In this document: positions 35,163-57,243 of the stretch, in pieces
How positions within the stretch are numbered: position 1 is the first letter of the stretch
Layout: the number at the start of each line of letters is the position of its first letter
Assembly: GCA_050247355.1 (NCBI GenBank)
Contig: JBFWUK010000007.1
Span: 71,100-135,099, forward strand
Reading direction: 5' to 3'
Source: Vicinamibacterales bacterium
GTDB lineage: Bacteria; Acidobacteriota; Vicinamibacteria; Vicinamibacterales; UBA2999
Length of the DNA: 64,000 nt
Translations under genes and position numbers: made by a program
Notes under the pieces: model-generated
Told to the model about the DNA's origin: nothing
Databases searched by the model: none
The model's input: the letters and a program-made list of their open reading frames with translations, nothing else

Positions 35163-36577
35163 TCGGCGACGCGCTGTGCTTCACGCCCGCGCGCGAGCTG
35201 GCCGGCATGATCGCCGCCCGTAAGGTATCGGCGCGCGAGGTGATGTCGGCATTCCTCGGCCAGATTCGCCGCCTCAACCCCTCGTTGAACGCCATCGTCG
35301 CGCGGCTGGACGACGATTCGTGCCTGGCGTTGGCTGATGCCGCCGACCGCGAGCTGGCCGGCGGCGCCCGGGTCGGTCCGCTGCACGGCCTGCCGATTGC
35401 GTTCAAGGACCTCGAGTCGGCGATCGGCTTTCCGTGCACCAAGGGATCACCGGTCTTCAAGGACGTCATGCCGGCCGTTGACACGGTGATCGTCGAGCGA
35501 CTGCGGCGGGCGGGCGTTGTCCCGATCGGCAAGACCAACGTGCCGGAGTTCGGCATGGGGTCCCACACTTACAACAAGGTCTACGGCACCACCTACAATC
35601 CGTACGACCGCACCAAGAGCGCCGGCGGTTCGAGTGGCGGTGCCGGTGCCGCCCTGGCCGCCGGTTTGCTGCCGCTCGCCGACGGCGGCGACCTTGGCGG
35701 CTCCCTTCGCAATCCCGCCAACTTCAACAACATCGTGGCGTTGCGGCCAACCGTCGGTCTGGTGCCTGTTGCGCCGGCGCCGCTGCCGATGGTTGGTGTC
35801 TCGGTCAAGGGGCCGATGGCGCGTTCGGTGTCCGACGTGGCCTTCATGCTGAGCGTGATGGCCGGCGCCGACGGGCGGGATCCGCAGACCTACCCGTCGA
35901 CGCCATCTGACTTTCTCTCGCCGCTCGAGCGCGACTGGCGGGGCGTGCGCGTGGCGTGGTCACCCAATCTTGGCGGCCTGCCGCTCGATCCCCTGGTCAG
36001 GAGCGTGCTGGACCGGCAGCGCCAGGTGTTCACCGATCTTGGTTGCACGGTCGAGGACGCGACCCCGGACCTGAGTGACGCCGACGACGTTTTCCTGACC
36101 CTGCGGTCGTGGGCGAATTGGCACACCCATGGCCCGCTGCTGGCGTCGCACCGGGCGCAGATCAAGCCCGAAGCGATCTGGGACATCGAAGCCGGATCGC
36201 GTTTGACCGGCGAGGACGTGGCCATCGCCATTGCGAAGCACGCCGCGCTGCTCGAGCGGATGCGCGTGTTCCAGGTGAAGTACGAGTTCCTGGTGTGCGC
36301 GGTGAACCAGGTGCCGCCGTTCGCTGCCGGCCTCGACTGGCCGAAGTCGATTGACGGCGTGACGATGGCCAACTACGTGGCGTGGATGAAGTCTGCCTAC
36401 TGGATCTCGACCACCTGCCGCCCCGCGATTTCGGTGCCGGCCGGCTTCACGCCGGAGGGCCTGCCGGTCGGGATCCAGATCGTTGGCCGCCATCGTGACG
36501 ACCTGGGCGTGTTGCGGCTAGGATTTGCGTTCGAGCAAGCGACGGGAGTGGGGAAGCGACGACCAGAAGGAGCATAG
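35153..36577 (+). CDS. Amidase-signature family amidase
   Basis: GGSSGG in SAGGSSGGAGAALAAG and the upstream GKTN Lys region. The GTG start lies at 35153, or at 35159 overlapping the corA stop. Confidence 0.85.
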   Translation: MDVIGDALCFTPARELAGMIAARKVSAREVMSAFLGQIRRLNPSLNAIVARLDDDSCLALADAADRELAGGARVGPLHGLPIAFKDLESAIGFPCTKGSPVFKDVMPAVDTVIVERLRRAGVVPIGKTNVPEFGMGSHTYNKVYGTTYNPYDRTKSAGGSSGGAGAALAAGLLPLADGGDLGGSLRNPANFNNIVALRPTVGLVPVAPAPLPMVGVSVKGPMARSVSDVAFMLSVMAGADGRDPQTYPSTPSDFLSPLERDWRGVRVAWSPNLGGLPLDPLVRSVLDRQRQVFTDLGCTVEDATPDLSDADDVFLTLRSWANWHTHGPLLASHRAQIKPEAIWDIEAGSRLTGEDVAIAIAKHAALLERMRVFQVKYEFLVCAVNQVPPFAAGLDWPKSIDGVTMANYVAWMKSAYWISTTCRPAISVPAGFTPEGLPVGIQIVGRHRDDLGVLRLGFAFEQATGVGKRRPEGA

Positions 36578-36579
36578 CA

Positions 36580-39033
36580 ATGGACGGGTTCCTGCTCGAC
36601 GTACGAAGCGCCTGGCGAGCCGCCATGCGCCGGCCGGCGCTGACGGCGCTGACGATCGTGACCCTGGTGTTGGGCATCGGCGCCAATACCGCCATCTTCG
36701 CCGTCGCCCGCGGTGTGCTGCTGCGCCCGCTGCCATACGAGGATCCCGACTCGTTGGCCATGATCTGGCGCAACGGCGCGACCTCCACCGATCCGCGAGG
36801 GATTGGCACCCCCGAAATGTTGCGCGAGTACCGCGCCCGTGCCTCCGCCTTCACCGACATCGCGGCCGTCGAACTGTGGCGCGGCAACCTGTCGGCCCAG
36901 GTCGACCTGGCTGGCGCTGACGGCGCCGAGCGCTTGCGTGGGTCGCTTGCGACACCTAACTTCTTCTCATTGCTCGGCGTGAACGCGGCTCTGGGCCGAA
37001 CCTTTGCCGAGAACGACGAGGCCCGCGTGGTTGTGCTCAGCGACGCTCTGTGGCGCCGGCGCTTCGGCGCCGATCCGACGATTGTCGGCAGGAGCATCGA
37101 CCTGGTCGGCCGGCGCGAGCGCCGTCGGGAACCTCACCAGGTGATCGGCGTCCTGCCGCCGCGCTTCCGCTTCACCTACCCTGAGGACACGGAAGTGTGG
37201 CTGCCGCTGTCGTGGCGGGACGTTGACGGTGCAACCGGCCAGGCGCTCCTGTATCACTTCGTCGCCCGGCTGAAACCTGGCATCGGGATTGAAGCCGCGA
37301 ATGCCGACCTGTCGGCGGTGGCGGCCGCCATGCACGTCGACCTGCCGAAGGGCGGCTACGACCGGATGTGGCTGTGGACCGAGCCGGTTCACGAATGGTC
37401 GGTTGGTCGCGTCCGGCCGGCGGTGAAGCTGATCGGCGGCGTCACACTATTGCTGCTGGTGATCGCAAGCCTCAACGTGGCCAGCCTGCTGCTGGCACAA
37501 ACCGCGGCGAGACGGCGTGAGCTCGCGCTGCAGCGGGCGCTGGGCGCGTCGCGCGGCCGGCTGGTGCGTCAGCTGCTCACCGAGTCGGCGCTGTTCACGG
37601 TACTCGCGGCTGCTACGGCGGTAGTGGTGGTGCTTGGCCTCCAGCAACTACTGCGCGCCATCCTGCCGCCGTCGATGCCGCGGATTGACGAAATTGGTGT
37701 CGATGCCGCCACGGTGGCATGGACCACCGGAGTTGGTGCGGTCACGCTGTTACTGGCCGGGTTGCTGCCAGGCTGGCGCGGCACTCGGGTCGATCCAAAC
37801 GCCGAACTGGGCGTCGGCGGCCGCTCCGCCAGCGGCGGCCGGGCGGCCGCCCGAATGCGGCAGGGTTTGACGATGCTTCAGATCGGCGCCGCTTCCGTGT
37901 TGTTGATCGGCGGGAGCTTGCTGCTGCAGAGCCTGTGGAATCTCCAGCGGGTGGACCTGGGCTTCGACGGTACTTCGGTCCTGACTCAGGAGATTCGCCT
38001 GCTGGGGCCGCAGTATCGGGACGAGGCCAGGCGAACGGCGTTTCACGATTCAGTAATCCAGAGAGTCCGCGGCATTGCCGGCGTGCGTGAAGCCGCCACG
38101 ACCTCGGCCATTCCACTGCGCGGCACCGACTACCGCGAGGCGATCCTCGTGCCGGGCACGACCGAGCGCGTGATCGCCAACCGCCGGCACGTTGATCCGT
38201 CGTACTTCGAGGTCATGCGGATTCCGCTGATCGAGGGCCGCTTGCTGACTGCTGCCGATCGCGCCGGCGCAGCCCAGGTGGCTGTGGTGTCGCAGGCACT
38301 GGCGCGCGCGATGTTTCCCGGCGGTTCTGCCCTGGGGCAGCACTTGCCTTACCGGCGGCTCGCCACCACCGGGCCTCCGCGGCTGGTGCCTGAATCCATA
38401 GAGATTGTCGGCGTCGTCGCCGACGTGCGGGCGCTGCGAGTGGAAGACGCCGGAGGACCCGCGTACTACGTGCCTCAAGCCCAGCGGTCGACGGACTTGC
38501 TGTGCCTCGTGATCCGCACCGAGGCCGGAGCCGATCACGTCGCCGCCGCGGTGCGCGCCGCGATTCGCGATGTCGACCCAAACCAGCCGGTCGGGCCCGC
38601 CACCACCGTCGGCGAGGTGATTGCCCTGACCTTCGCCGACCGTCGCTTCTACGCGATTGCGACGCTGGCGTTTGCCGGCATCGCTCTGCTGCTGACGGTT
38701 GCCGGTCTCTACGGCATCATGGCCATTTCGGCGGCCGAACGCATCCGCGAACTGGGTATTCGCGTCGCCCTTGGCGCCACTCGCCGCGGCCTGGTGCTGT
38801 TGCTCCTGCGCCAGGGCATTGCGCCCGTGCTGGCCGGGGTCGCGTTGGGCGGGTTGGCGGCGGCCTGGGCGGTGCGGTTCCTGACGGCGTATCTGTTCGG
38901 CGTCGCGCAGGTGGGGCCGCAGGTCTATCTGGCTGTCGCCCTGCTGGTCGGAGTCGGCGGTCTGGCAGCGTGTTTACTGCCCGCCCGCGGTGCGTCGATG
39001 GCCGATCCGATGGAGGCGCTGCGAAGCGAATAA
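36580..39033 (+). CDS. ADOP-family duplicated FtsX/MacB-type orphan permease
   Basis: 817 aa with two MacB periplasmic plus FtsX 4-TM modules in one chain. No adjacent ABC ATPase. This architecture is typical of Acidobacteria. Confidence 0.85.
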   Translation: MDGFLLDVRSAWRAAMRRPALTALTIVTLVLGIGANTAIFAVARGVLLRPLPYEDPDSLAMIWRNGATSTDPRGIGTPEMLREYRARASAFTDIAAVELWRGNLSAQVDLAGADGAERLRGSLATPNFFSLLGVNAALGRTFAENDEARVVVLSDALWRRRFGADPTIVGRSIDLVGRRERRREPHQVIGVLPPRFRFTYPEDTEVWLPLSWRDVDGATGQALLYHFVARLKPGIGIEAANADLSAVAAAMHVDLPKGGYDRMWLWTEPVHEWSVGRVRPAVKLIGGVTLLLLVIASLNVASLLLAQTAARRRELALQRALGASRGRLVRQLLTESALFTVLAAATAVVVVLGLQQLLRAILPPSMPRIDEIGVDAATVAWTTGVGAVTLLLAGLLPGWRGTRVDPNAELGVGGRSASGGRAAARMRQGLTMLQIGAASVLLIGGSLLLQSLWNLQRVDLGFDGTSVLTQEIRLLGPQYRDEARRTAFHDSVIQRVRGIAGVREAATTSAIPLRGTDYREAILVPGTTERVIANRRHVDPSYFEVMRIPLIEGRLLTAADRAGAAQVAVVSQALARAMFPGGSALGQHLPYRRLATTGPPRLVPESIEIVGVVADVRALRVEDAGGPAYYVPQAQRSTDLLCLVIRTEAGADHVAAAVRAAIRDVDPNQPVGPATTVGEVIALTFADRRFYAIATLAFAGIALLLTVAGLYGIMAISAAERIRELGIRVALGATRRGLVLLLLRQGIAPVLAGVALGGLAAAWAVRFLTAYLFGVAQVGPQVYLAVALLVGVGGLAACLLPARGASMADPMEALRSE

Positions 39034-39098
39034 CGCCGCCGCGTCGCCCACCGAAGCGCGGTGATATAATTCTACCCAACCGCGGAGGACCCTCCGCA

Positions 39099-39132
39099 CT
39101 CTTTAAACGCGGACCTGCGAGTTCGCAAAGAG
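39099..39132 (+). promoter_or_regulatory. PyrR-binding-type RNA hairpin sequestering the pyrR Shine-Dalgarno
   Basis: CUCUUU-AAAC-[GCGGAC-CUGCGA-GUUCGC]-AAAGAG. The hexaloop follows CNGNGA, as in the B. subtilis CAGAGA binding loop. The 3' arm of the lower stem is the Shine-Dalgarno AAAGAGG, 5 nt from ATG 39139. A second covarying copy lies at 58239. Confidence 0.6.
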
Positions 39133-39138
39133 GTGCAT

Positions 39139-39675
39139 ATGCCAGTCGTCATGGATGCCGAGCGCATCTCGCGCGCGCTCACCCGCATCGCCCACGAAAT
39201 CATCGAGCACAATCGCGGCCTGTCGTCGATCGCGCTGGTCGGCGTGCGCAGCCGCGGCGTGCCCATCGCCCAGCGGATTGCCCGCGACGTCCTCCAGATC
39301 ACGAAGGAAGAAGTCGCGGTCGGCGCCCTCGACATCACGCTCTACCGCGACGACCTGATGGGCGCCTCGGTCGGCATCTCGCCGGTGGTGCGCAAGACCG
39401 AGATTCCGTTCTCGATCGACGGCCGCACCATCGTGCTGGTGGACGACGTGCTCTACACCGGCCGGACGACGCGGGCGGCGCTGGATGCGCTGACCGACTT
39501 CGGCCGTCCGAAGTCGATTCAACTGGTGGTGCTGGTCGACCGTGGCCACCGCGAACTGCCGATCAAGGCCGACTACGTCGGCAAGAACGTGCCGACCTCC
39601 AGGCAGGAGAGCGTGCAGGTCCACCTGCAGGAGCTCGACGGGGTGGACGAAGTGCTGCTGCAGGCGAAGGAGTAG
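39139..39675 (+). CDS. pyrR: Bifunctional pyrimidine operon regulator / uracil phosphoribosyltransferase PyrR
   Basis: [24 protein letters not shown] motif and typical 178-aa length. It lies directly upstream of pyrB. Confidence 0.9.
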
Positions 39676-39678: not shown

Positions 39679-40650
39679 ATGGACGTGACCCAGACGCCGC
39701 CGCTCACCGCCCTCAGGCAGAAGCACCTGCTCGGCATTGCCGACCTCAGCCCGGAAGAGATTGTCCTCGTGCTCGACACCGCCGAGGCGATGAAGGAAGT
39801 CGGGCAGCGCACCATCAAGAAGGTGCCGACGCTGCGCGGCCGCACCGTCATCAACCTGTTCTTCGAGCCGAGCACCCGCACGCGCACGTCGTTCGAGATT
39901 GCCGAGAAGCGCCTCAGCGCCGACACGCTCAACGTCGCGATTGCCTCGTCCAGCGTCGTGAAGGGCGAGACCCTGGTCGATACCGCGATGAACCTCGAGG
40001 CGATGGCGCCGAGCATGATCGTGCTGCGCCACGCCTCGTCCGGCGCCTGCCACCTGCTGTCGCGCATCTGCAAGGCCGCCATCGTCAACGCCGGCGACGG
40101 CATGCACGAGCACCCGACGCAGGCCCTGCTCGACGCGTTCACCATCCGCGAACGAAAGAAAAAGATCGCCGGCCTCAAGATCGCCATCGTCGGCGACCTG
40201 CTGCACAGCCGGGTGTTGCGGTCGAACCTGCTGCTGCTGACCAAACTGGGCGCCGAGGTGTGGGCGTGCGCGCCGGCCACGCTGATTCCGCCGGGCCTGC
40301 CGCAAATGGGCGTCAGGGTCACGACCCGGGTGGACGAAGCGGTCGAAGGCGCCGACGTCATCATGATGCTGCGCATCCAGCTGGAGCGCATGCAGGGCGC
40401 CTATTTCCCGTCGCAGCGTGAGTACTTCCGGACCTTTGGCATGACCGAAGCCCGGGTGGCGCGGGCGAAGCCCGACGCCATCATCATGCATCCCGGGCCG
40501 ATCAACCGCGGCGTCGAGATCGCCTCGGAAGTCGCCGATGGCGCCTCTTCGGTCATCCTCGACCAGGTCGCCAACGGGGTCGCGGTGAGGATGGCGGTGC
40601 TGTACCTGCTGGCCGGCGGCGGCGACGGCGACTCCGCCCGGGCCGATTGA
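39679..40650 (+). CDS. pyrB: Aspartate carbamoyltransferase catalytic subunit
   Basis: STRTR carbamoyl-phosphate motif ([11 protein letters not shown]), HPTQ and HPGP motifs. Confidence 0.92.
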
Positions 40651-40710
40651 CAGCCCTTCACGCCGCCCGTACGATGGTAGCTTGTCATTCCGCCTCGCCA
40701 GGTTGCAGTC

Positions 40711-41361
40711 ATGATCCGCTGGTTTCGCTCGCGCGTTAGCACTTTGCTCAATCTCGTTCGTCACCGGGCGCCGGTTCGCCGCGTCGCCACCGCACAATTG
40801 CCAACCGAGTTCGGGGAGTTCACCATTCACGTCTTCGAGAACGGGATGGGGGGCGGCACCCACGTGGCCATGGTGCGGGGCGAAATCGGCGACGGCGAGA
40901 ACGTGCTGGCCCGCGTCCATTCGTCGTGCCTGACCGGCGACATCTTCCATTCCTCGCGCTGCGACTGCGGCGAGCAGTTGCACGCGGCGCTGCAGCGAAT
41001 CTCGGACGAGGGCCGCGGCGTGCTGCTGTATCTCAACCAGGAGGGCAGGGGCATCGGGCTGGCGAACAAGATCCGCGCCTACGCCCTGCAGGAAGCCGGC
41101 TGCGACACGGTCGAAGCCAATGCCCGCCTGGGCTTTCCGGCCGACCTGCGCGATTACCGCGCCGCCATTCGCATGCTGCAGGATCTCGGCGTGCGGTCGA
41201 CGCGGCTGATGAGCAACAACCCGCGCAAGCTGGCGGGCATCACCGGTGAAGGCCTGTCGGTGAGCGAACGCCTGCCGATCGAGATCCTGGCCAACGCCTC
41301 GAACGAACGCTACCTCAAGACCAAGAAAGACAAGCTGGGCCACCTGCTGTCGTCGGTGTAG
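40711..41361 (+). CDS. ribA: GTP cyclohydrolase II (stand-alone, no RibB domain)
   Basis: VHSSCLTGDIFHSSRCDCGEQL zinc/Cys motif and NQEGRGIGLANK. The N-terminal 20 residues may be an over-extension. Confidence 0.85.
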   Translation: MIRWFRSRVSTLLNLVRHRAPVRRVATAQLPTEFGEFTIHVFENGMGGGTHVAMVRGEIGDGENVLARVHSSCLTGDIFHSSRCDCGEQLHAALQRISDEGRGVLLYLNQEGRGIGLANKIRAYALQEAGCDTVEANARLGFPADLRDYRAAIRMLQDLGVRSTRLMSNNPRKLAGITGEGLSVSERLPIEILANASNERYLKTKKDKLGHLLSSV

Positions 41362-41364
41362 CCG

Positions 41365-42924
41365 GTGTTCGCCGCTGCCGCCCTGCTGCTGCTGAACGCG
41401 TCGCTCACGTTCGGCAACGTGTGGCCGACACCGAAGATCCGCTGGGAGACGGCGCTGTCCGTGGAGCTGGCGGTGTGCGTGCTGCTGCTGGTGGTGGCGC
41501 ACCAACGGGCCGAGCGTCTTGCCCGCCGCGTGCTGCCTGCCTTGTGGGTGCTGCTGGTCGCCGGCCACTATCTCGACGTCACCGCCCCGGGGCTCTACGG
41601 CCGCGACTTCAACCTCTATTGGGACTCCCGGCACCTGGGCAACGTCACGGCCATGCTGGCGCGCGTGGTGCCCGCCTGGCAGATCGCGGCTGCGGCGGCC
41701 GGCTTCGTCGTCATCATCGCCGTCGTCTACCTGCTGTCGCGGCTGGCACTGCGGCACCTTGCCGCGGCGGTGCAACATCGCCGCCCACGCTTCGCGCTCG
41801 GCGCGATGGCGGCGCTCGTCGTCGCGCTGTTCGCCGCGCAGTCGTTCGTGCCGTTCGCGCGGCCGGCGTTTGCTGATCCGGCGGCTGGCGCCTATCTGCG
41901 CCAGGCCCGCTACGTCGTGGCGATGGCCGGCCCCGGCGGCGCGGTGCCGGCCCTGGGCGACAGCCCTGATTTTGCCGCCGACCTGGGCGGCCTCGACGGC
42001 GCGGATGTCGTGCTCGTGTTCCTGGAGTCGTACGGCGCCGTCACGTTCGACGACCCGGTGTTTGCCGAATCGCTGGCCGCGAGCCGGCGCAACCTCGCCG
42101 GCGCGGTGAGCGCTGCGGGCCGCGAACTGGTCTCCGCGTATGTCGAGTCGCCGACCTTCGGCGCATCATCGTGGCTCGCCCACCTCAGCCTGCTCTCGGG
42201 CGTGAAGGTGGCCGATCAGTACGCCTACACGTCGTTGATGGCCTCGTCGCGCGACACGCTGGTGAAGGCGTTCAGGCGCGGCGGCTATCGGTCGGTGGCG
42301 CTGATGCCGGGCATGCGGCAACCGTGGCCTGAAGGCGCCTTCTATGGCTTCGACGTGATTTACGGCCGCGACCTGCTCGCCTACAAGGGTCCTGAGTTCG
42401 GCTGGTGGGGGATTCCCGATCAGTTCGCGCTGGCCCGGCTGGACGAACTCGAGCGCACCGCCGCGCCACGCGCGCCGCTGTTTGCGGTGTTTCCCACCAG
42501 CATGTCGCACACGCCGTTCGGCCCGGTGCCGCCCTTTCTTCCCGAGTGGTCACGGGCGCTGCACAGTGACGGCTACCGTCCAGAGGATGTGGCAAGTGCC
42601 CCGGCGCCGGACCTGACCAATCTCTCGCCGAGCTACCTGCGGGCCATCGGCTACACCTACGACACGCTGGCCGGCTACATTCGCGCGCACGCCGGCGAGA
42701 ACCTGGTGATGGTGGTAATCGGCGATCACCAGCCGCCCGCCGCGGTCAGCGGCCGCACCGCTGTGCGCGATGTGCCGGTCCACGTGATCGCCAGCCGGTC
42801 CGGAATACTTCGACATCTGCAGTCGAACGGCTTTCGTTCAGGTGTCGAGCCCGAGCGGCCGGTGGCCGGCGAGATGCACGCGCTGGTGCCGATACTGCTC
42901 GGCGCCTTCAGCGCGCGCGATTAG
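41365..42924 (+). CDS. Membrane-anchored sulfatase/LtaS-like (alkaline phosphatase superfamily) protein
   Basis: 5 N-terminal TM segments followed by VLVFLESYGAV and SPTFGASSW, which are LtaS/sulfatase-like metal-site and nucleophile regions. The GTG start is 3 nt after the ribA stop. Confidence 0.55.
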   Translation: MFAAAALLLLNASLTFGNVWPTPKIRWETALSVELAVCVLLLVVAHQRAERLARRVLPALWVLLVAGHYLDVTAPGLYGRDFNLYWDSRHLGNVTAMLARVVPAWQIAAAAAGFVVIIAVVYLLSRLALRHLAAAVQHRRPRFALGAMAALVVALFAAQSFVPFARPAFADPAAGAYLRQARYVVAMAGPGGAVPALGDSPDFAADLGGLDGADVVLVFLESYGAVTFDDPVFAESLAASRRNLAGAVSAAGRELVSAYVESPTFGASSWLAHLSLLSGVKVADQYAYTSLMASSRDTLVKAFRRGGYRSVALMPGMRQPWPEGAFYGFDVIYGRDLLAYKGPEFGWWGIPDQFALARLDELERTAAPRAPLFAVFPTSMSHTPFGPVPPFLPEWSRALHSDGYRPEDVASAPAPDLTNLSPSYLRAIGYTYDTLAGYIRAHAGENLVMVVIGDHQPPAAVSGRTAVRDVPVHVIASRSGILRHLQSNGFRSGVEPERPVAGEMHALVPILLGAFSARD

Positions 42925-42941
42925 CGCCTGTCCACGGACGA

Positions 42942-43110
42942 GGCTACAGAGGACACAGAGAGTTAATTCTGCAAACTGGCTGTCAGCCCTTGCAATGCGA
43001 TTGGAAGCGGACTCGCGTCAGCGTGTTCTTACGTCTCCATCACCGTGCCGCCGAACCGCGCAGATTGCGCTGACCGGCGCGCGCAGTTTGAGGATTCGAA
43101 GCCAGGCCGC
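42942..43110. repeat. Intergenic repeat element, copy B (partial)
   Basis: GGCTACAGAGGACACAGAGAGTTAATTC (42942-42969) matches the copy A left arm plus GAGTAATTCC. The 16-mer TTCGAAGCCAGGCCGC (43095-43110) is identical to 9581-9596. Confidence 0.6.
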
Positions 43111-43158
43111 CTGATCTAACCCATCCTCCGAATCGGCAGGATCTGAGCGCAGCGGTCA

Positions 43159-43178
43159 GGCGGCGATGGCTCGCCGCC
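43159..43178 (-). terminator. Hairpin downstream of the hybrid kinase gene
   Basis: GGCGGCGA-TGGC-TCGCCGCC forms a perfect 8-bp stem 8 nt after the stop codon. There is no U-tract. Confidence 0.35.
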
Positions 43179-43186
43179 AGAGGCCC

Positions 43187-46100
43187 TCAGGCATCCAGGC
43201 AACGTCGAACAGTCTCGAGGACTTTGGAAGGCGCGGACGGCTTTTGAATGAAGTTCTGTCCCTCCTGCAAGGAAATCTCCCGGCCGGCGATCTCTGCGCT
43301 GTAGCCACTAGTGAAGACGACTTTTAACCCCGGTTTGGACGCCATAAGCTGAGTGGCCAATTCGCGGCCGCTCACGCCGCCCGGCATGACGAGATCCGTC
43401 AGCAGCAGGTGGATGTCCTTTCGATGCTGTTCCCACACCTTTAGGGCTTCGACCCCATCCGAGGCTTCGACGACCTGGTAGCCGGCTCGTTCCAGGACAA
43501 CCCGGGTCAGCATGCGGACGAGCGGCTCATCTTCCACGACCAGAATCGTTTCTGTTCCGCCGGCCGGCCTGGACTGCGTCGCCAGCGCGGCGATCTGGGG
43601 CGCCGCCGTTCTCGCTGGAAGCAGAACCCTGAAAGTGGCTCCCTGCCCAGGTTCACTCTCCACCTGCAGCAAACCACTGTGCTGCTTGACGATGCCGAAG
43701 ACGGTGGCCAATCCAAGTCCCGTGCCCTTGCCCGCCTCCTTGGTGGTGAAGAACGGCTCGAAGATTCGCGGCAACACGTCGCTCGGAATACCGGTGCCGG
43801 AGTCGCTTACGCTCAGCGCCACGTAGTCGCCCGGCGCGACTTCCTGGTGGAGCCGCCCGAGCCTCTCGTCGACGACTTGCTGGGAGGTCGTAATGATCAG
43901 TCGTCCGCCGCCAGGCATGGCATCCCGGGCATTGACAGCCAAGTTCATGAGCACCTGATCGATCATTCCGGCATCCGCGTACGTGATCAACGGGCTCGGG
44001 TGCAGATCCAACTGCAACCGCACATCCTCCCCAAGGATGCGCTGAAGCAGCTTGGCCAGGCTCGTGACGACTTCGTTGAGATCCAAATCACGCGGCTGCA
44101 TGACTTGCTTCCGGCTGAAGAGCAGCAGCTGCCGGGTGAGATTGGCGGCGCGTTCGGCGGATGCTCGGATTTGCTGTAAACCCTCATGGATCTCTGGCGG
44201 CACACGGTCGGCCGTTTCGGAGAGTTCGGCCTGCATCATCATCACGGTGAGAATGTTGTTGAAGTCGTGCGCCACCCCGCCGGCCAGCTGACCGATGGCC
44301 TCCATCTTCTGCGACTGACGGAACTGATCCTCCAGTTGGCGGCGGTCGGTGATGTCTTCCGCAGTCCCGACGATGCGGATGACCTCGCCCGTGCTGCCGC
44401 GCACCGGAAAGGCGCGGTCCTTGATCCAGCGCACGGCGCCGTCGGGCCGCACGATCCGGTAGGTTTCGTCGTAGTGGCCGATCGACTGCCTGGTTTCAGC
44501 GGCGTGCATGATTCTCGCGCGGTCGTCGGGGTGAATCGCCTCGAGCCAGGTGTGCGGGGACTCGTGGAGGCTGGCGCATGTGCGGCCCCAGATGGTCTCG
44601 TAGGCCGGGCTGACGTACAGCATCTCGCGCTTGGCCGGGTCGGTAATCCAGAAGACTTCCTGGATGTTCTCCGCCAATTCCCTGAAGCGAGTCTCGCTTT
44701 CGCGCAACTGCTGCTCGTAGCGCAGACGTTCGGCCTCCCGCTCATGGACTTCCAGCGCGAAGCCGATGTCCAGGGCCAGTTCATCCAGCAGGCGAAGTTC
44801 ATCAGCGTCAAAGAAGTCCGGCTCATCGGCGTACAGATTAAATGTGCCAATGACGGTGCCCCGGACTTTCAGCGGCAGCGACACCATCGAGCGGTAGCCG
44901 CGTTGCCACGCAGCCTCGCGCCAGGGGGCGGCGCGCTGGTCACGCGCGATGTCGTTGCAGATGCCGTGCTGGCCGGTGCGCAAGGCCTGCGCCGTGAAGG
45001 CGCAATCGCCCCCGTGTTGGTGCGTGCCGACAAGCGCGAGCAGAATCTTCAGTGTGTCGTCCGTCGCGCCGGCATGCGAGGTGATTTGCAACCGTCCGTC
45101 GGCCGAATCCACCAAGCCGATCCACGCCATGAGGAATCGGCCCTTCTCGACGGCGATCCCGCAGGCTGCCGTGAGCATCGCCCGGGGGTCTTTCTCGCGC
45201 ACGATATTCTGATTGATGTCGCTCAAGACCGCATAGACGCGGTTCAACTGGCGGATGTGTACCTCGTCCCGCTTCCGCTGGGTAATGTCCTGCACCGTGC
45301 CGTAGAGTCCCCGCACTTTGCCGTCGTCGCTCAGGTGCGGCACCGCCCTTGCGTGCACGTGCACCCGCCGGCCGTCCGGATGAATGGCCACCAGTTCGTA
45401 CTCCTGGGCTTCGCCCGTCCCGATCGCCCGGTTGACCTGATCAGTCATCAACGCGACGGAGGCCGGATCGTAAATCGTGGCGTTTTCTTCGTAGCTGCGC
45501 GGCGGCCCGAGCAGCGGATCACGCCCAAGTATTTTGAACACTTGCGGTGACCAGGTGATGTCCTGAGTGGCAAAATCCCACTCCCAGTCTCCCATCTGTC
45601 CGATGTCCTGCGCGACAGTCAAGCGCTCAATCGCGCGCGCAGCAGCCTGCTCCGCCAGCACGCGCCCGGTGATGACTTCGGTGAAAATAATGATCCCGCC
45701 GATGTCCCCCTGCGCCGTGTGCCACGGTCGGATTTCCCACCGCACCCAGTCTGTGGTGCCGTCGGCCCGGGGGAACTCATCCGCGTCGCAACGCTCGACC
45801 GCCCCTGCGAGACACCGCCGGTGGATGTCCTTCCAACGCTCCGGGACTTCCGGAAACACGTCATAGTGGCTGACGCCGATGATGTCCCGTTCGCCCAGGT
45901 TGTAGTCGGTGAGACAGCGACGGCTCACCACGAGGTACCGCATGTCGCGGTCGAGCATGGCCAGCGCCGCCGGGCTGTGCTCGATGAAGAGTCGGAGCAC
46001 CTGAGCATTTTCGAGCAGCGCCGCCTCCGCCGCCTTGCGCTCAGTAATATCCACAAACGTGACGGCGCATTGCCCCGCCGCTGGCTGGTAGGCAGAGATG

Positions 46101-47275
46101 GAGTAATACGTGCCGAGACGCTCCGAACGCTGCTCAAACTGCCGGGGCACTCCGGTCAGCGCCACCTGCGCGAACGTGCCTATCCAGTCGGCGTCGTCAT
46201 CTTCGATCCCTGGCAACACGTGTGTCAGGCGTTTGCCGATCACCTCCTGTGGATTCAGACCCGTCGTCACGGCAAATCCGTGATTGGCCGCGAGGATGAC
46301 AAGGTCGATCGGCGCGCCTCGATCGTCCTGCACGACCTCGAACAACTCGAAGCCGCCGGCCATGTTCTCAAAGAGCGACCGGTACCGTTTCTCGGACTCA
46401 ACGATCTTCTGTCCCGCCTGCTTGTGCTCGGTGATATCAACGAACGTGCTCACCGCGTGCGGTTCGCCCCGTAACTCCACCACCGCCGTGCTCATCAGGA
46501 CCTCGCGGGTCTCTCCGCCTCGTGTCCGGAGCGTGAGTCCCTCGCCTTGCGCGCGGCCATCCTTCCCCAACTGCGATCGCACGCGCGCCGCGTCAGCCTC
46601 CTCAACGAGGGCCAGGTCGCCGGTGGTCCGGCCAACAATGTCCTTCAGCTCCCAGCCGGTGATGGTCGAGAACGCGGCATTGGCATCCGTGAACGTTCGG
46701 TCACCGAGGCGATTGATGGCGAGGCCGACCGGACACGTGCTGAACACCCTGAACAACCGCGCTTCCTCCTCGGCGAGCGCGCGCGCGTGGCGGCGCAACT
46801 CCAGTTGCGCCATCACCTGCCGGCCCAGCACGCGTAGCGCGTCCTGCTGCGCCGTGGTCAACTCGCGCGCCACACGGTCGATGACGCACAACGTGCCGAG
46901 CGCCGCCCCATCAGGTGTGACCAGGGGCGCGCCGGCATAAAAACGGATGCGGGGATCGTCCGTGACGAGAGGATTGTCCGCGAAGCGTTCATCGCAAGTG
47001 GCATCTGGGACGATGAACAGGTCCGACTGAAGAATGCCATGCGCGCAAAACGACACGTCGCGCGGTGTTTCGGTGACGGTCAGGCCGACTTTGGACTTGA
47101 ACCATTGCCGGTGCTCGTCAATTAGCGAAATCATGGCGATCGGCGCGCCGCAGATGTGCGCGGCGAGGGCGGTCAGGTCATCCAGCGCTTGCTCTGGCGC
47201 CGTGTCGAGCACTTCGTAGCGACTGAGTCGCTGCAAGCGCTCGGCCTCGTTGGACGGGTGAAGGGGCGGCCGCAT
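43187..47275 (-). CDS. Hybrid sensor histidine kinase (GAF, multiple PAS, GAF, PAS, HisKA, HATPase_c, REC)
   Basis: 1362 aa. GAF-like N-terminus (FCAHGIL...RFYAGAPL), repeated PAS-like blocks, H-box GGVAHDFNNIL, G-boxes GTGLGLATV, and a C-terminal receiver (LVVEDE...LLLTDLVMPG). Confidence 0.9.
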   Translation of the reverse strand: MRPPLHPSNEAERLQRLSRYEVLDTAPEQALDDLTALAAHICGAPIAMISLIDEHRQWFKSKVGLTVTETPRDVSFCAHGILQSDLFIVPDATCDERFADNPLVTDDPRIRFYAGAPLVTPDGAALGTLCVIDRVARELTTAQQDALRVLGRQVMAQLELRRHARALAEEEARLFRVFSTCPVGLAINRLGDRTFTDANAAFSTITGWELKDIVGRTTGDLALVEEADAARVRSQLGKDGRAQGEGLTLRTRGGETREVLMSTAVVELRGEPHAVSTFVDITEHKQAGQKIVESEKRYRSLFENMAGGFELFEVVQDDRGAPIDLVILAANHGFAVTTGLNPQEVIGKRLTHVLPGIEDDDADWIGTFAQVALTGVPRQFEQRSERLGTYYSISAYQPAAGQCAVTFVDITERKAAEAALLENAQVLRLFIEHSPAALAMLDRDMRYLVVSRRCLTDYNLGERDIIGVSHYDVFPEVPERWKDIHRRCLAGAVERCDADEFPRADGTTDWVRWEIRPWHTAQGDIGGIIIFTEVITGRVLAEQAAARAIERLTVAQDIGQMGDWEWDFATQDITWSPQVFKILGRDPLLGPPRSYEENATIYDPASVALMTDQVNRAIGTGEAQEYELVAIHPDGRRVHVHARAVPHLSDDGKVRGLYGTVQDITQRKRDEVHIRQLNRVYAVLSDINQNIVREKDPRAMLTAACGIAVEKGRFLMAWIGLVDSADGRLQITSHAGATDDTLKILLALVGTHQHGGDCAFTAQALRTGQHGICNDIARDQRAAPWREAAWQRGYRSMVSLPLKVRGTVIGTFNLYADEPDFFDADELRLLDELALDIGFALEVHEREAERLRYEQQLRESETRFRELAENIQEVFWITDPAKREMLYVSPAYETIWGRTCASLHESPHTWLEAIHPDDRARIMHAAETRQSIGHYDETYRIVRPDGAVRWIKDRAFPVRGSTGEVIRIVGTAEDITDRRQLEDQFRQSQKMEAIGQLAGGVAHDFNNILTVMMMQAELSETADRVPPEIHEGLQQIRASAERAANLTRQLLLFSRKQVMQPRDLDLNEVVTSLAKLLQRILGEDVRLQLDLHPSPLITYADAGMIDQVLMNLAVNARDAMPGGGRLIITTSQQVVDERLGRLHQEVAPGDYVALSVSDSGTGIPSDVLPRIFEPFFTTKEAGKGTGLGLATVFGIVKQHSGLLQVESEPGQGATFRVLLPARTAAPQIAALATQSRPAGGTETILVVEDEPLVRMLTRVVLERAGYQVVEASDGVEALKVWEQHRKDIHLLLTDLVMPGGVSGRELATQLMASKPGLKVVFTSGYSAEIAGREISLQEGQNFIQKPSAPSKVLETVRRCLDA

Positions 47276-47418
47276 TCGTGCCTGACCGTGTTATAGCCGA
47301 AGTGACGCTGGTCAGGTAGGAGGAAGTGGCCGAGTCTTCCATGAGCGAGATCCATCGGACGAGGGATAAGTGGTTCTCATGATGGGGCGAGGCTGACAGC
47401 GGCCAGCCGGCCCTCACG

Positions 47419-49119
47419 TCAACGCGGCTGGCCGAACAGACCGCCGAAGAAGTCGCCCTCGTTCCATGCCGGCCTGGCGGATTGCTCCGCGACCTGCCAT
47501 CCCGTCAGGAAGTTGATCCTGGCATGGTCCGCTCCGGCCTCGAAGTCGAAGGCCTGCGACATGTCGTCGTTCGGCTTGTGGTACACGTCGCGGCGGTAGG
47601 CGGCGTTGATGGCGCTGCCGTCGCGGGCGTCACCGGTCTCGAATCCGCTCTTGATGAACAGCGACGGCACGCCCTGTCGCACGAAACTGTAGTGATCGCT
47701 GCGGATGAACAGCACCTGCTCGGGGATGGGATCCTCGCCAATGGCCATGCCCAGCTTTCTGGCGGCGCGGTTCACCGGCGTGGAGAGCGTGGAGTGCTGG
47801 GCGCCGTACGGCACGATGTCCTTCAGCGGATGGAACAGGAACGGCATGTCCAGCGTCAGGTCGGCGACAATGCCGCCGGCGGGCACGGTGGGGTTGCGCG
47901 CGAAGTAGTCCGAGCCGAGCAGGCCGCGCTCTTCGGCGGTGACAAACAGGAACAGGACCGATCGCTTCGGCGCCGCCGGCAGTGCCTTGAAAGCACGGGC
48001 CAGCTCCAGCACGATGGCCACGCCCGAGGCGTTGTCGTGCGCGCCGTTGTAGATGTCGTCGCCGTTCATCGCCACCCCGCGGCCAAAATGATCGACGTGC
48101 GCGATGTAGACGACGTGTTCGTTCTTCAGCGACGGGTCGGTGCCTTCGAGACGCGCCACCACGTTGGCACTGTCCAGGCTGGTGTGGGTTGACCTGGTCG
48201 TGATCGACACGCGTGTGGCAAGGTCGAATGCCTGGGGCTCGCTCTTCGCCGCCGCTGCGAACACCGCGGCCGCGGGCTTCGAGGCGCCGTCAAAGATCGC
48301 CGCGACGCCCGAGTGGTTGAGCGAGACCGAGCCGCGCAGGGCCGGATCGCCGCGATTGGGTTGTCCCTTCGCGTCGAGCCACGCGTAGTTGCCCTGTGCG
48401 CCGGTGGCGACGCTGACATCCCAGCGGAAGCGCGGGTCGTCCGGCGAGGTGAAGCTGATCGTGCCGACGGCGCCGCGCTTGACGGCCTCCGCGTCCTTGA
48501 CGGCGCCCGACGAGTAATACGCGCGCTCGTTGCTCGGCAGTTTCGCCGGGGCGCCGCTGAGATATGCGACCACCTTGCCCTTTACGTCCACGCCGGCGGC
48601 GTAGTCGTCATATCCCTGCGCCGGCGCGCTCACGCCGTAGCCGACGAACACCACGGGCGCATCTGCGAGGCTGACGTCTTCGCGCAACTGGTCCGCCGCC
48701 AGCAGATAGTCCTTGCCGTAGGCCAGGGTCTTCGTGGCGCCCTTGGACGTCACTGCGAACGAGCTTGCCTTCTGCACGATGACGCTGTTCCTGAGCGGCA
48801 CGCGCTGGCGGAAGCTGCCGTTTTCTCCGGACGGAGAGAGGCCGCCAGCGGTGAGCGTCTGTTCCACGTATTGCAGCGCGCGTTCATACCCGGCGCTGCC
48901 GAGCCCGCGGCCTTCCATTTCGTCGCGCGCGAGCACGGTCATGTGCTGCTTGATCCGGTCGGCGCTGATCGCTTCGAGCGCGGCGTCGATGGCGGGCGTG
49001 TCGATCGACACGGTTTCCTCAGTTGCCGGCGCCGGCGCTGCCGGTGCGCCTCCGCACGCAGCAAGCAGCCCACCCAACGCGATGCCCAGGAATCCATGTC
49101 GTCCGATACGCCGGCTCAT
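47419..49119 (-). CDS. M28 family metallopeptidase with PA domain, lipoprotein
   Basis: LLAACGG lipobox. Zn-ligand regions HVDHFG, GAHDNASG, AEERGLLGS and SDHYSF. Confidence 0.85.
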   Translation of the reverse strand: MSRRIGRHGFLGIALGGLLAACGGAPAAPAPATEETVSIDTPAIDAALEAISADRIKQHMTVLARDEMEGRGLGSAGYERALQYVEQTLTAGGLSPSGENGSFRQRVPLRNSVIVQKASSFAVTSKGATKTLAYGKDYLLAADQLREDVSLADAPVVFVGYGVSAPAQGYDDYAAGVDVKGKVVAYLSGAPAKLPSNERAYYSSGAVKDAEAVKRGAVGTISFTSPDDPRFRWDVSVATGAQGNYAWLDAKGQPNRGDPALRGSVSLNHSGVAAIFDGASKPAAAVFAAAAKSEPQAFDLATRVSITTRSTHTSLDSANVVARLEGTDPSLKNEHVVYIAHVDHFGRGVAMNGDDIYNGAHDNASGVAIVLELARAFKALPAAPKRSVLFLFVTAEERGLLGSDYFARNPTVPAGGIVADLTLDMPFLFHPLKDIVPYGAQHSTLSTPVNRAARKLGMAIGEDPIPEQVLFIRSDHYSFVRQGVPSLFIKSGFETGDARDGSAINAAYRRDVYHKPNDDMSQAFDFEAGADHARINFLTGWQVAEQSARPAWNEGDFFGGLFGQPR

Positions 49120-49842
49120 ATGTGTCGCCCTCCAATGGCTGGAGAAGGATAGCAGGTGCGGGCCTTGGGCGAGCCAGTCGATCGCAGGTTCAGGGCGCCG
49201 CGATCGTCAGCCGAGGGTCGGCGCGGCCCGCCGAGCTTGGCCACCGCTTCGGCGCGTGACTGCACCTGCAGCGTCTCGTAGATGCGGCGAACGTGGGCCC
49301 GGACGGTGTTGATGCTCACGCCGAGTTCGTCGGCGACTCCTTGTACATCAGCCCGCGGCTGAGCGCGGCCAGCACCTCGCGTTCGCGCTCGGTCAGGGCC
49401 TGTACTTCCGGCGCTTCTCGCCGCGGCGAGAAGTACTGCACCAGCTTGCGGGCGATGGCGCTCGAGATCGGCGAGCGCCGGCACACACCTCGCGCACGGC
49501 GTCGAGCACTTCGCCGCCGGTAGCTTCCTTCAGGACGTAACCGGTGGCGCCCGCCTTGAGGGACTCGAACACGGTCTCGCTGTCGCCCAGGGCCGTCAGC
49601 ATCACCACCTGCACCGAGGGCAACACGTTCTTGAGCTGCCGGACGCACTCGATGCCCGTCATTCCCGGCAGGTTGATGTCCATCAATACGGCGTCCGGCG
49701 CGAGGCCGGGAAGGTGCGCCATCGCCTCCTCGCCCGAACTGTACGCGCCGACGAGCCCTATCTCCGGATCGCCGGCCACGAGGGCGCCGTACTCCGCCCG
49801 CAGGCGGGGATCGTCTTCAACCAGGGCGAGGCGAATTGGCAT
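49116..49842 (-). pseudogene. NarL/LuxR-family response regulator disrupted by two 1-nt frameshifts
   Basis: REC domain in frame 1 (MPIRLALVEDD...LMDINLPGM...REVCAG). The linker and first HTH half sit in frame 2 (SPISSAIARKLVQYF...LTEREREVLAALSRGLMYKE). The HTH recognition helix sits in frame 3 (VADELGVSINTVRAHVRRIYETLQV). The frame switches occur near 49476 and 49347, both in short G/C runs. Confidence 0.7.
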
Positions 49843-49872
49843 GGTCAGTTAGTCCGGCGGGTCGGTGGTGCG

Positions 49873-52057
49873 CTATCGCATGGGCATGCGAAAGCGCACG
49901 GTGGTGCCTCGCCCTGGCACGGTCTCGATGGCCGCGCTGCCGCCGACCGCGGCCAGCCGGTCGCGCATGTTGGCCAGCCCGTGGCCGGCCGCCTGTTCCG
50001 GATCGAAGCCGCTGCCATCATCGGCAAAGGTCACCTCGAGGGCGCCGTCGCTCACGGTCAGGCCGATCTTGAGCGCGGACCCGCGGGCATGCTTCACGGC
50101 GTTGTTGACTGCCTCCTTGATGCCCAGGAACACGTGCCGCCGTGCTGTCGCCTCCAGCAGGTACGGCGCAATGGTGGCAGGTGCGTCGATGCGGCACCGG
50201 AGGCCGGCTGCGCGCGCGTGCCGCTCGGCGAAGCGGATCACATAGCTGACCAGCCCCTCCAGCGTGTCGTTGGTCGCGCTGACCGACCACACCAACTCGT
50301 CCATCGTCCGGGCCGTTTCGGCGGGCCGTGGTCGATAGCTCCGCGCGGGTCCCGGAGTCGGCGCTGCGATCGGCCAGCAGCGCCAGATACGTCAGCCGGG
50401 TGCCGATGTCGTCGTGCAGATCGCGCGCGATGCGCGAGCGTTCGCTGGCCAGTGCGTGCTCGCGTTCGAGCTCGGCCACCCTGGCGCGCGCGCCGCAGCG
50501 ACGCGCTGCGCACGACCACGCCAGTGACCACGAGCAGCAGCGTGAGGGCGGCCGCCTGCACCGTCCGCCGTTGCCACCACAACGGCGCCACCGTCAGCCG
50601 CAGGCGCGCCGGTGCGGGACTCCACAGGCCGTCGTTGTTGGCGGCCAGGACTTCGAGCGTGTACGCGTCCGGCGGCAGGTTGGTGTAGAAGACCGAGCGC
50701 CGGCCAATCGCCTCGTGCCAGTTGGCGTCGAAGCCGGCAAGCCGGTAGCGAAACCGCACCCGATCCGGCGCCAGCAGGCTGAAGGCCGTGTAGGCGATCT
50801 CCACGCCGCGGGTGCCCGCCGGTACCGGCACTTCGCCCGCGACGGGTTGTCTCACCTCGACCTCGTCGAGCGTGACGTGCTCGATGGCCACTGCCGGCGG
50901 GACCTGATTGAGCGGCAGCGTCGCCGGGTCGATCACGGCAATGCCATCGAGCGTGGAGAACCACAGCCGGCCCTGTCGATCGCGCAGGCCGGACGGGTCG
51001 AACCCGCCACCCGACCCTTCGAGTGACCACAGGCCGTCGGCCTTGCCGAGTACGATGGGATCGAGGGTCGAGGCCTCGCCGCGCGCGACGGCCTCCACGT
51101 TCTCCCGCAACAGTCGCGAGATGCCGCGCGAGCTGGCCACTCAGAGGTTGGCGTCGAGGTCCTCGATCATCAGCGCGATGACGGGATCGGGCAGTCCGTG
51201 CCGGACCCCGAAGTGTTCGTACCGGCCGGTGCGGCGGCGGAACAATCCCCGGTTGGCGGTGCCAATCCACAAGTCCCCGCGCGAGTCGATGTTCAGCGAA
51301 GACACGAGACTCGTCGGCAACCCCTCTTCCGGGCCGACATTGCGGAAGCGCCCCTCGTCGAGCAGAAACAGGCCGTTGGCATTGGAGCCTAGCCAGAGCC
51401 GCCCATTGGCGTCCTGCGCGAAGCTGACGACGCGTCCAGGCGGCAGGCCATGCGCGGGTCCGAACGTCTCGAGACGGCCGTCGCGCTGGCGATGGGTGTT
51501 GGCCGTGTCGGCGCCAATCCAGATGGCGCCGTCACGGTCCTCGAAGATCGCGGTCACGATCGACGAGCTGAGGCCCTCGCGCTCGCCGAAGTGCCGCAGC
51601 TGTCCGTCGCGCCAGGCATACAGCCCGGCCCGGTCGACGCCGAACCACAGCGTGCCGTCCGAAGCAGCCGGCACCGAGACGCCGCATTCAACGCGCGCGA
51701 TCTGCGGCAGGCGCGGTTGAAACCGTCCATCGGGTCCCAGCATCGAGAGCGGCGCACACCGGCCGCCGGCCCAAATCGTTCCCGCCGCGTCCTGGACGAT
51801 CGAGGTGATGACGCGCGACGACAGTCCGTGCTCCAGGCCGAGCATGGTCACCCGGGTCTTGCGCAGCCGGACCAGGCCCCCGCCGTCGGTGCCCAGCCAC
51901 AGGCTGCCACTTCGTCTTCGTGCATCCGAACCACGGGGGTTGGCGGCAGGCCGAACGCAGCACCGAACGTGGTGCGTGTTGCGCCGTCATAGCGCACCAC
52001 GCCGCCTCCGGTCGCGCGGTTCGCCCACACCGCTCCGTCTCGGGCGCGATAGAGCAC
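49873..52057 (-). pseudogene. NarX-type sensor kinase (Reg_prop repeats, Y_Y_Y, TM, HisKA_3, HATPase_c) disrupted by an in-frame stop and at least three frameshifts, and N-terminally truncated
   Basis: The domain pieces are spread over several ORFs and frames:
- 51848-52057 and 51141-51851: propeller repeats.
- 50238-51140: Y_Y_Y domain plus TM segment.
- 50018-50479: ERSRIARDLHDD H-box.
- 49873-50304: HATPase domain.
A TGA at 51141-51143 interrupts ...DLDANL*VASSRG... Confidence 0.7.
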
Positions 52058-52110
52058 GGATGGCGCTCCCGGTTCACAGCGGGCGCCTAGGCTTCGTACT
52101 GGCTAACACG

Positions 52111-52155
52111 CAATTTGAAAAGGACTGGCTTGGTGTCCTCTCTGTCCTCTGTGGC
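52111..52155. repeat. Intergenic repeat element, copy C (one arm only)
   Basis: CAATTTGAAAAGGACTGGCTTGGTGTCCTCTCTGTCCTCTGTGGC aligns with the copy A right half (CATTTTGAAGGACTGACTCTGAGTCCTTTGTTTCCTCTGTGGCC). It ends on the stop codon of the adjacent minus-strand gene. Confidence 0.65.
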
Positions 52156-54449: not shown

Positions 54450-54451
54450 CC

Positions 54452-57235: not shown

Positions 57236-57243
57236 AGGGTTGC

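Follow-up and report, generated by a model that had tools for sequence, protein, structure and literature searches.

A 64,000-nucleotide stretch of DNA from a Vicinamibacterales bacterium of the phylum Acidobacteriota (GenBank assembly GCA_050247355.1, contig JBFWUK010000007.1, positions 71,100 to 135,099; hereafter ‘the window’) carries two copies of a small RNA hairpin, one just upstream of pyrR-pyrB and the other at the head of a detached pyrC unit, that resembles the RNA loop bound by the pyrimidine regulator PyrR. Judged on its sequence and conservation, the hairpin is likely to act in both places as an operator through which PyrR occludes a ribosome-binding site. We consider this the best explanation for both copies, and it agrees with an original prediction that was made from the letters of the window.

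Two hairpins that overlap ribosome-binding sites

The features on which this interpretation is built are as follows.

39099 to 39132, + strand: predicted PyrR-binding hairpin, copy 1 (sequence, fold, and 61.1 bits, E 4e-16, with covariance model R2)
39127 to 39135, + strand: Shine–Dalgarno (SD) sequence of pyrR, AAAGAGGUG (DNA AAAGAGGTG), beginning with the 6 bases of the lower-stem 3′ strand (from sequence)
39139 to 39675, + strand: pyrR, 178 amino acids (NF003549, 250 bits)
39679 to 40650, + strand: pyrB, aspartate carbamoyltransferase (NF002032, 414 bits), starting 3 nt past the pyrR stop
58239 to 58271, + strand: predicted PyrR-binding hairpin, copy 2 (sequence, fold, and 41.5 bits, E 3e-10, with model R2)
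58267 to 58274, + strand: SD of the open reading frame (ORF) that follows copy 2, AAGAGGUG (DNA AAGAGGTG) (from sequence)

Both copies follow a common plan, which consists of a lower stem of the type CUCUUU/AAAGAG, an AA(A)C internal loop on the 5′ side, an upper stem of 5–6 bp and a C-N-G-N-G-A hexaloop. The 3′ arm continues into the SD, and an AUG is located 5 nt past GAGG, which is 6–7 nt past the last paired base. In copy 1, where CTCTTTAA begins at 39099, CUCUUU (39099–39104) pairs with AAAGAG (39127–39132), AAAC (39105–39108) remains unpaired as the internal loop, and GCGGAC (39109–39114) pairs with GUUCGC (GTTCGC in DNA, 39121–39126) to present the hexaloop CUGCGA (CTGCGA in DNA, 39115–39120); the ATG of pyrR occupies 39139–39141. 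Copy 2 reads CUCUUUAA(CG)-CGGGU-CCGCGA-GCCCG-A-GAAGAG over 58239–58271, with CTCTTTAA at 58239–58246. Its lower stem joins 58239–58244 to 58266–58271, its upper stem joins CGGGU (58249–58253) to GCCCG (58260–58264) around the hexaloop CCGCGA (58254–58259), and an ATG follows at 58278–58280.

The minimum-energy structures computed with RNAfold coincide with these hairpins (−16.1 kcal/mol and z −1.9 for copy 1; −12.7 kcal/mol and z about 0 for copy 2). The sequence pattern CTTTAA-N8-30-AAGAGG occurs twice in the 64-kb window, where 0.01 occurrences are expected. Model R2, the second of two covariance models and one built only from other genomes with no window sequence included, recovers both copies and no third site in the window at E ≤ 1; with the first covariance model and its filters turned off, the next-best site in the window reaches only 10.4 bits. 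The earlier proposal of two leaders with one shared hairpin plan, the first of them in front of pyrR and pyrB, is thus upheld by the sequence, the model scores and the protein family matches. So is its remark that the pyrK-pyrD-pyrF operon is devoid of the motif, as judged by the model scan, and these three genes are genuine, but they reside on the minus strand (30603–28022).

Conservation and covariation among relatives

Relatives are identified below by locus numbers (L001 and upwards), L161 being the window’s own sequence. They comprise a genome set of the 80 closest pyrR loci and a metagenome set of 44 contigs that were fetched through pyrC and not used in building the first covariance model. 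A simple pattern search located the motif in 77 of the 80 genome loci, no more than 300 nt ahead of pyrR, and the first covariance model likewise gave one site per locus in 77 of the 80. Each metagenome contig also carries one site, in front of pyrR and always 1.5–1.9 kb upstream of pyrC; L103 has an additional, cut-off model match at the end of its contig. In total, 121 loci (77 genome and 44 metagenome) carry the hairpin, always on the pyrR strand and upstream of that gene.

Base pairing was assessed on the structure drawn in the original prediction. In an alignment of 62 distinct hairpins, 98.5% of the cells are paired, compared with 34–58% when the 3′ partners are slid, and the covariation score was reached by none of 500 shuffled alignments. 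Two upper-stem pairs carry the signal, namely 15–26 (GC, GU, AU and CG) and 16–25 (AU, CG, UG, UA and GC). A second set, consisting of the metagenome sequences, the window and L162, is 97.4% paired and covaries at the same two pairs, with slid controls at 34–60% over both sets. This upper-stem covariation is not an artefact of selection, because the pattern used to collect the sequences fixed only both ends of the hairpin. The compensatory upper-stem changes that had been noticed between the two window copies therefore extend across 110 distinct sequences. The conserved elements named at the same time also hold: the C-N-G-N-G-A loop is present in 105 of the 110, in 12 different versions, and AAGAGG is invariant, with the pyrR start codon 5–10 nt further on in the approximately 40 relatives where the hairpin abuts pyrR.

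G·U pairs are frequent among the pairs that are maintained, which argues that the structure is selected in the plus-strand RNA and not as a DNA palindrome. On the same ground, an inverted repeat serving as a DNA-level operator for a DNA-binding protein was ruled out.

Five loci (L047, L050, L052, L058 and L070) have a variant apical region (GCGGU-ACGAGAG-ACCGC or ...GGGAUAU...) that departs from C-N-G-N-G-A in the usual register. These hairpins may reflect a shifted loop or covariation with their own PyrR proteins.

Relationship to known PyrR binding loops

The Rfam family RF00515 has the consensus auCCUUuUAAa-ucAGUC-CaGaGA-GGCUga-aAAGGau, in which a hexaloop tops a 6-bp upper stem and a 5′ internal loop separates the upper stem from a 7-bp lower one. 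This consensus matches the hairpin of L025, CUCUUU-AAUc-GCGGAC-CAGAGA-GUCCGC-AAAGAG, column for column, and the two window copies share these columns. Nothing in L025 aligned to model positions 40–115, which hold the antiterminator and the terminator. Loops of the window’s family also agree with the Bacillus subtilis PyrR binding-loop consensus, ARUCCAGAGAGGYU, and with the recognition determinants described in the same source (PMC7430163). The positions that never change (hexaloop C, G, G and A, the C-G pair closing it, and UUUAA) coincide exactly with those of the PyrR loop; variation is free at the N positions and inside the stem.

The gene context is equally consistent with this assignment. 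Both sites lie in same-strand 5′ leaders of pyrimidine genes (pyrR, pyrB and pyrC) in a genome that encodes PyrR, and the protein from the window matches solved PyrR structures over nearly its full length, first that of Thermus thermophilus (1UFR, E 1e-64) and then those of Bacillus caldolyticus (1NON) and B. subtilis (1A3C), the Bacillus match having E 1e-61. Because the hairpin has the RF00515 binding-loop plan, fits the B. subtilis consensus, is linked to pyrR at more than 120 loci and adjoins a bona fide PyrR gene, we identify it as a candidate PyrR operator, as had been suggested. From these sequence comparisons we conclude that it represents a PyrR binding loop without the attenuator half, and that by score it is not a member of RF00515.

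Given this likeness, the opposing possibility, that the hairpin serves a different protein or a small ligand, or that descent alone has preserved a structured SD region, seems highly improbable. It would account for the lack of an Rfam match in the window, and the motif is mostly invariant in sequence, so shared ancestry explains part of its conservation. However, its invariant positions match the PyrR loop exactly, with freedom elsewhere in the hexaloop and upper stem, and the hairpin is linked exclusively to pyrR, or to pyrC once that gene is detached from pyrR.

Transcript start and the search for terminators

Three further features lie immediately upstream of the hairpins.

39062 to 39070, + strand: extended −10 box TGATATAAT, putative promoter element of the pyrR-pyrB transcript (sequence; family pattern TGn+TAnnnT)
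39082 to 39097, + strand: additional 5′ stem-loop, GCGGAG-GACC-CTCCGC, separating the −10 box from copy 1 (folds by RNAfold)
58222 to 58230, + strand: extended −10-like box TGCCATACT, putative promoter element of the pyrC unit, 8 nt upstream of copy 2 and identical in L162

Among 117 distinct loci, 85 have a TGnTAnnnT box ahead of the hairpin, at a distance of 6–10 nt in 61 of these, and many other loci have TATAAT or TATACT without the TGn at the same distance. In the clade of the window, the box is 26–29 nt upstream; that of copy 1 lies at 28 nt because the clade has inserted the 16-nt stem-loop at 39082–39097. In L001–L007, L009, L010, L013 and L081 this stem is invariant and its 4-nt loop varies freely, whereas in L017, L020 and L025 the same slot is occupied by a degenerate second PyrR-like hairpin. 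The extra stem-loop may be the remnant of a duplicated (tandem) PyrR hairpin or a stabilizer of the mRNA 5′ end. In most loci the mRNA probably begins at the foot of the hairpin, with a predicted start 0–3 nt from it, and such a start would leave no room for competing upstream structures or for an alternative-structure attenuator.

In Bacillus-type attenuation, which is the classical mechanism of the family (PMC7430163) and employs the same binding loop, PyrR acts as an anti-antiterminator that lets a downstream intrinsic terminator form. We regard this as hardly credible for the present hairpins. Downstream of both copies we searched for a terminator-like hairpin followed by a T-run and found none, which bears out the earlier statement that no terminator/antiterminator pair follows; moreover, the AUG lies within 7 nt of the hairpin, and the terminator half of RF00515 finds no counterpart. 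The anatomy, with the 3′ arm within the SD, no terminator, and a −10 box that positions the 5′ end, supports the earlier preference for translational repression over attenuation.

The position of the predicted start also raises the question of whether binding of PyrR, or the hairpin itself, mainly alters mRNA decay that depends on the 5′ end. A start 0–3 nt from the hairpin foot in most loci would suit such a role, as would the additional 5′ stem-loop with its invariant stem in the window’s clade. Nevertheless, control of stability would require neither the invariant overlap with the SD nor the fixed spacing between SD and AUG, and a repressor at the 5′ end would be expected to shield the mRNA, the opposite of what feedback repression needs. 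We therefore hold this explanation to be very unlikely.

The lower stem contributes only about −3 kcal/mol beyond the upper stem (−10.7 versus −7.9, and −10.6 versus −7.6), and it competes with other weak pairings in longer contexts. It is too weak to block ribosomes unaided, and hence blocking is expected only when a bound protein locks the stem; a like logic is reported for Mycobacterium smegmatis.

A leader ORF in front of pyrC, and its counterparts

Three features follow copy 2.

58278 to 58337, + strand: 19-codon leader ORF encoding MTTFLPPGRRTPHLLPTHL and a stop (sequence and ORF analysis; same length in L162)
58334 to 59638, + strand: pyrC, dihydroorotase (TIGR00857, 427 bits)
59638 to 60261, + strand: 207-amino-acid phosphoribosyltransferase, weakly pyrE-like (TIGR01367, 76 bits, below the cutoff of 150; PF00156)

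The original prediction placed an ATG 5 nt after each SD. This spacing is present in both copies, but the AUG after copy 2 does not belong to pyrC and instead opens the leader ORF. The ORF containing pyrC cannot begin before 58334, and the AUG at 58278 is in another frame. The UGA of the leader ORF (58335–58337) overlaps the pyrC AUG (58334–58336) as AUGA, and no SD precedes the latter. Thus pyrC is most likely translated by termination–reinitiation, and its control by PyrR would be indirect. The phosphoribosyltransferase gene, which follows pyrC in all relatives that were looked up, is probably co-transcribed with it.

The ortholog of copy 2 in L162 scores 44.4 bits with R2, has C-G in place of U·G and the loop CCGUGA, and precedes a leader ORF of the same length with the same AUGA overlap and 4 amino-acid changes. 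No hairpin adjoins pyrC in a metagenome scan of 80 pyrC loci, in most of which pyrC directly follows pyrB, and ten exact-protein look-ups returned the window’s own L161 and L162 as the only independent split locus. The support for copy 2 accordingly comes from two genomes and the model score.

A perfect 14-nt G+C palindrome, GCGGCGTACGCCGC, is present at 58301–58314 within the leader ORF; its stem is kept and its loop is changed in L162. With no T-run after it, it is not a classical terminator. Separately, GACACCTC at 58205–58212 is the exact 8-nt reverse complement of the SD region GAGGTGTC at 58270–58277 and is conserved in L162. Since its position is ahead of the predicted −10 box, it is unlikely to be part of the transcript, and a role as an anti-SD would require a second promoter further upstream.

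Leader ORFs are also associated with the hairpin in distant relatives. In 38 such loci the hairpin is 26–150 nt upstream of pyrR, and here too an SD and a start codon come after it. The ORFs thus opened have 12–52 codons, and most end 1–23 nt inside pyrR, usually with a TGA within pyrR codons 4–5; pyrR is preceded in these loci by a second SD (GGAGG). When compared with control frames, the openness of the leader ORFs is uninformative because the leaders are C-rich and all three frames are poor in stops. Their translation is therefore argued from the invariant spacing between SD and start codon and from a frame preference (frame 2 in 30 of the 38) by which most of the upstream ORFs terminate shortly after entering pyrR. 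The leaders (for example, L052 2885–3013, L076 2903–3007, L073 2930–3013 and L066 2861–3013) are C-rich and G-poor, with a mean (C−G)/(C+G) of +0.19 in the 38 relatives versus −0.014 ± 0.105 in coding windows. Those of L036–L079 are often assembled from short tandem repeats (CCCGAGT, CCCGATTA, CCTCGAAT), with different repeats in different genomes, and a Rut-like role (Rut, Rho utilization) is possible for these leaders. How a block of the leader SD reaches a downstream gene that has its own SD is a question that the leader-ORF variants raise.

One answer would be that Rho-dependent polarity is the main output, mainly in leader-ORF versions such as copy 2. PyrR would block initiation, the untranslated C-rich RNA downstream would load Rho, and the decisive effect would be an end to transcription. 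Bias of C over G is named as the hallmark of Rut sites in PMC13650167, and the skew of the relatives’ leaders has a parallel in the window, where the leader ORF has 24 C and 13 G (skew +0.30). With a strong GGAGG of its own, pyrR of these relatives would escape direct silencing if only the leader SD were blocked, and a search for intrinsic terminators in 34 leader-ORF loci found a hairpin with a T-run in just 3. Against this, the 60-nt leader ORF of the window is short for a Rut site, copy 1 is without any leader, and C-richness, which makes all frames stop-poor, may have other causes. On balance, we consider Rho-dependent polarity unlikely to be the principal output.

Proposed mechanism and points that weigh against it

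In the mechanism that we favour, occlusion of the ribosome site by PyrR, both hairpins would be operators for the PyrR protein encoded right after copy 1, and the site at copy 1 would be autoregulatory, as pyrR encodes the regulator itself. Transcripts are predicted to start a few bases upstream of the hairpin, with the 16-nt stem-loop coming first at copy 1. PyrR would recognize a surface made up of the CNGNGA hexaloop, the upper stem beneath it and the AA(A)C internal loop on the 5′ side. Below it, the weak, AU-rich lower stem would pair CUCUUU with AAAGAG, which is the first half of the SD AAAGAGGUG. When uridine monophosphate or uridine triphosphate (UTP) is abundant, PyrR would bind and lock the lower stem, and the locked stem together with the bulk of PyrR would exclude the 30S subunit from the SD and from the AUG 5 nt downstream. 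For PyrR operators in general, binding stimulated by these nucleotides would be counteracted by GTP. At copy 1, the expected outcome is autorepression of pyrR and repression of the closely following pyrB. At copy 2, the start of the leader ORF would be blocked, and pyrC would be reached only by ribosomes that read the leader; the phosphoribosyltransferase gene downstream is probably under the same leader coupling.

Several observations weigh against this interpretation, and readers should take them into account. The RF00515 model produced no match in the window at its gathering threshold of 54 bits, nor at E ≤ 10 in 300-nt slices, and even L025, which has the Bacillus-like loop CCAGAGAG, reaches only 25.1 bits (E 0.079). 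The original prediction had named the absence of a covariance-model hit, combined with no conservation of the hairpin in related genomes, as grounds for abandoning it; the first applies to the window, and the second does not, since the hairpin is very strongly conserved in relatives. The lower stem that contains the SD is nearly invariant, the sole change being U-A to U·G at one pair. Its pairing is therefore not backed by compensatory changes, and the SD and protein contacts, instead of a helix, could explain why this stem is conserved; compensatory change maintains pairing in the upper stem and is uninformative for the lower one. When more of the surrounding sequence is folded, the minimum-energy structure of copy 1 has the SD paired to coding sequence and not to the lower stem, and the hairpin of copy 2, taken by itself, shows no gain in stability over shuffled sequence. 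Copy 2 has a single independent ortholog, in L162. Finally, what we take to be the RNA-binding residues of Bacillus PyrR are partly kept in the window protein: Thr18, Arg19, His22 and Arg141 are present, and Arg27 is replaced by His and Arg146 by Lys, in what is presumably the Bacillus numbering.

A broader proposal, which we advance tentatively and regard as possible but doubtful, is that the extended −10 box, the operator, the SD and the optional leader ORF form a portable Vicinamibacterales cassette. Its leader-ORF versions, including the pyrC unit, would be PyrR-gated, Rho-dependent attenuators that lack an intrinsic terminator, in which PyrR would silence the gene indirectly, with halted leader translation exposing C-rich, often tandem-repeated, structure-poor RNA to which Rho is recruited. 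Such leaders might possibly also be sensitive to the supply of cytidine triphosphate or UTP while their pyrimidine-rich sequence is transcribed, and the cassette would have been recruited to restore control after a 17.7-kb insertion into the operon.

Division of the operon and the origin of copy 2

In almost all relatives, pyrR-pyrB-pyrC is followed by the phosphoribosyltransferase gene and then by a DUF2400 gene, and pyrB overlaps the start of pyrC. Homology of the window to this arrangement ends at 40619 and resumes exactly at 58334, which indicates that a 17.7-kb block was inserted between pyrB and pyrC. The block (40620–58333) holds ribA, further genes, a RibD_C gene (minus strand, 57244–58209), the promoter, hairpin copy 2 and the leader ORF. 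The presence of riboflavin genes at both of its ends suggests a transplanted rib cluster. The last approximately 10 codons of pyrB are new sequence derived from the insertion and give the protein a new C-terminal tail, GDGDSARAD. Judging from this arrangement, the leader ORF now supplies the coupling once supplied by the 3′ end of pyrB.

The junction of pyrB with ribA, which is the next gene after pyrB in the window, is common to four genome loci (L004, L005, L010 and L013), and the independent contig of L162, with a pyrC that is 95% identical, has the same arrangement of RibD_C gene and pyrC. The split operon thus constitutes a natural experiment, in that a detached pyrC bears its own copy of the operator, as if selection keeps pyrC under PyrR control.

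Organism and neighbouring genes

An ADOP permease and the 80 closest pyrR loci place the organism in the Vicinamibacterales, and an identical stretch is present in GCA_050186845.1. The duplicated permease of the ADOP family (36580–39033, within the region 36577–39056) separates pyrR from an amidase gene. Close relatives (L163 and others) have pyrR directly after the amidase gene, and the permease thus represents a second insertion beside the operator. Downstream of the pyrC unit, at approximately 61163–61794, gene calls on the identical contig L161 include a pair of genes for a small VapB-like antitoxin and a PIN-domain toxin.

Comparison with known systems

To our knowledge, translational control by PyrR has been shown by experiment only in mycobacteria. 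The present hairpins would extend its range, as predicted from sequence, to a large and mostly uncultured order of soil and freshwater Acidobacteriota. Literature searches found no report of this hairpin in Acidobacteria, and an Rfam-based survey from 2013 makes no mention of Acidobacteriota (PMC3766115). The findings also expose a gap in Rfam coverage, in that RF00515, which requires the terminator half, misses these sites; a model restricted to the binding loop could be seeded with the 110 distinct sequences.

The hairpins have several features in common with the RF00515 elements of Bacillus and other Firmicutes (BL1–BL3): the 3′ strand of the lower stem is purine-rich, AAAG(A)G, UAA forms the internal loop on the 5′ side, the upper stem has 6 bp, and C-G closes the C-N-G-N-G-A loop. 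They differ in that no antiterminator or terminator (approximately positions 40–115 of the model) lies downstream, in scoring below the gathering threshold, and in having a 3′ strand of the lower stem that doubles as the SD.

A closer likeness is found in Mycobacterium smegmatis, where a single PyrR loop reportedly overlaps the pyrR ribosome-binding site and no terminator or antiterminator is present. That leader also reportedly belongs to an autoregulated operon that starts with pyrR-pyrB in a genome of high G+C content. The M. smegmatis type of anatomy is found here, with the AAAGAG of the SD as the 3′ strand of the lower stem, an AUG 5 nt past GAGG and no terminator. Here, in contrast, the host belongs to the Vicinamibacterales, and the mRNA apparently opens with the hairpin, just after an extended −10 promoter. 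The detached pyrC has an operator of its own, which would work via a leader ORF, and the system as a whole is predicted from sequence. PyrR-dependent translational repression in M. smegmatis is the subject of Fields and Switzer 2007, according to the title as cited in PMC13328217.

Copy 2 and the distant leader-ORF loci, but not copy 1, call to mind Thermus. In strain ZO5, a PyrR box is said to cover the SD of a short leader ORF overlapping the beginning of the gene that follows, and the model for that system reportedly relies on an intrinsic terminator inside the leader. Here, no terminator is conserved (none after copy 2, and 3 of 34 leaders), and the gene downstream of copy 2 is without an SD of its own, which suggests simple termination–reinitiation coupling. 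By analogy, we place the hairpin in one class of device with the mycobacterial PyrR translational operator, and we judge that copy 2 resembles the leader-ORF arrangement of Thermus.

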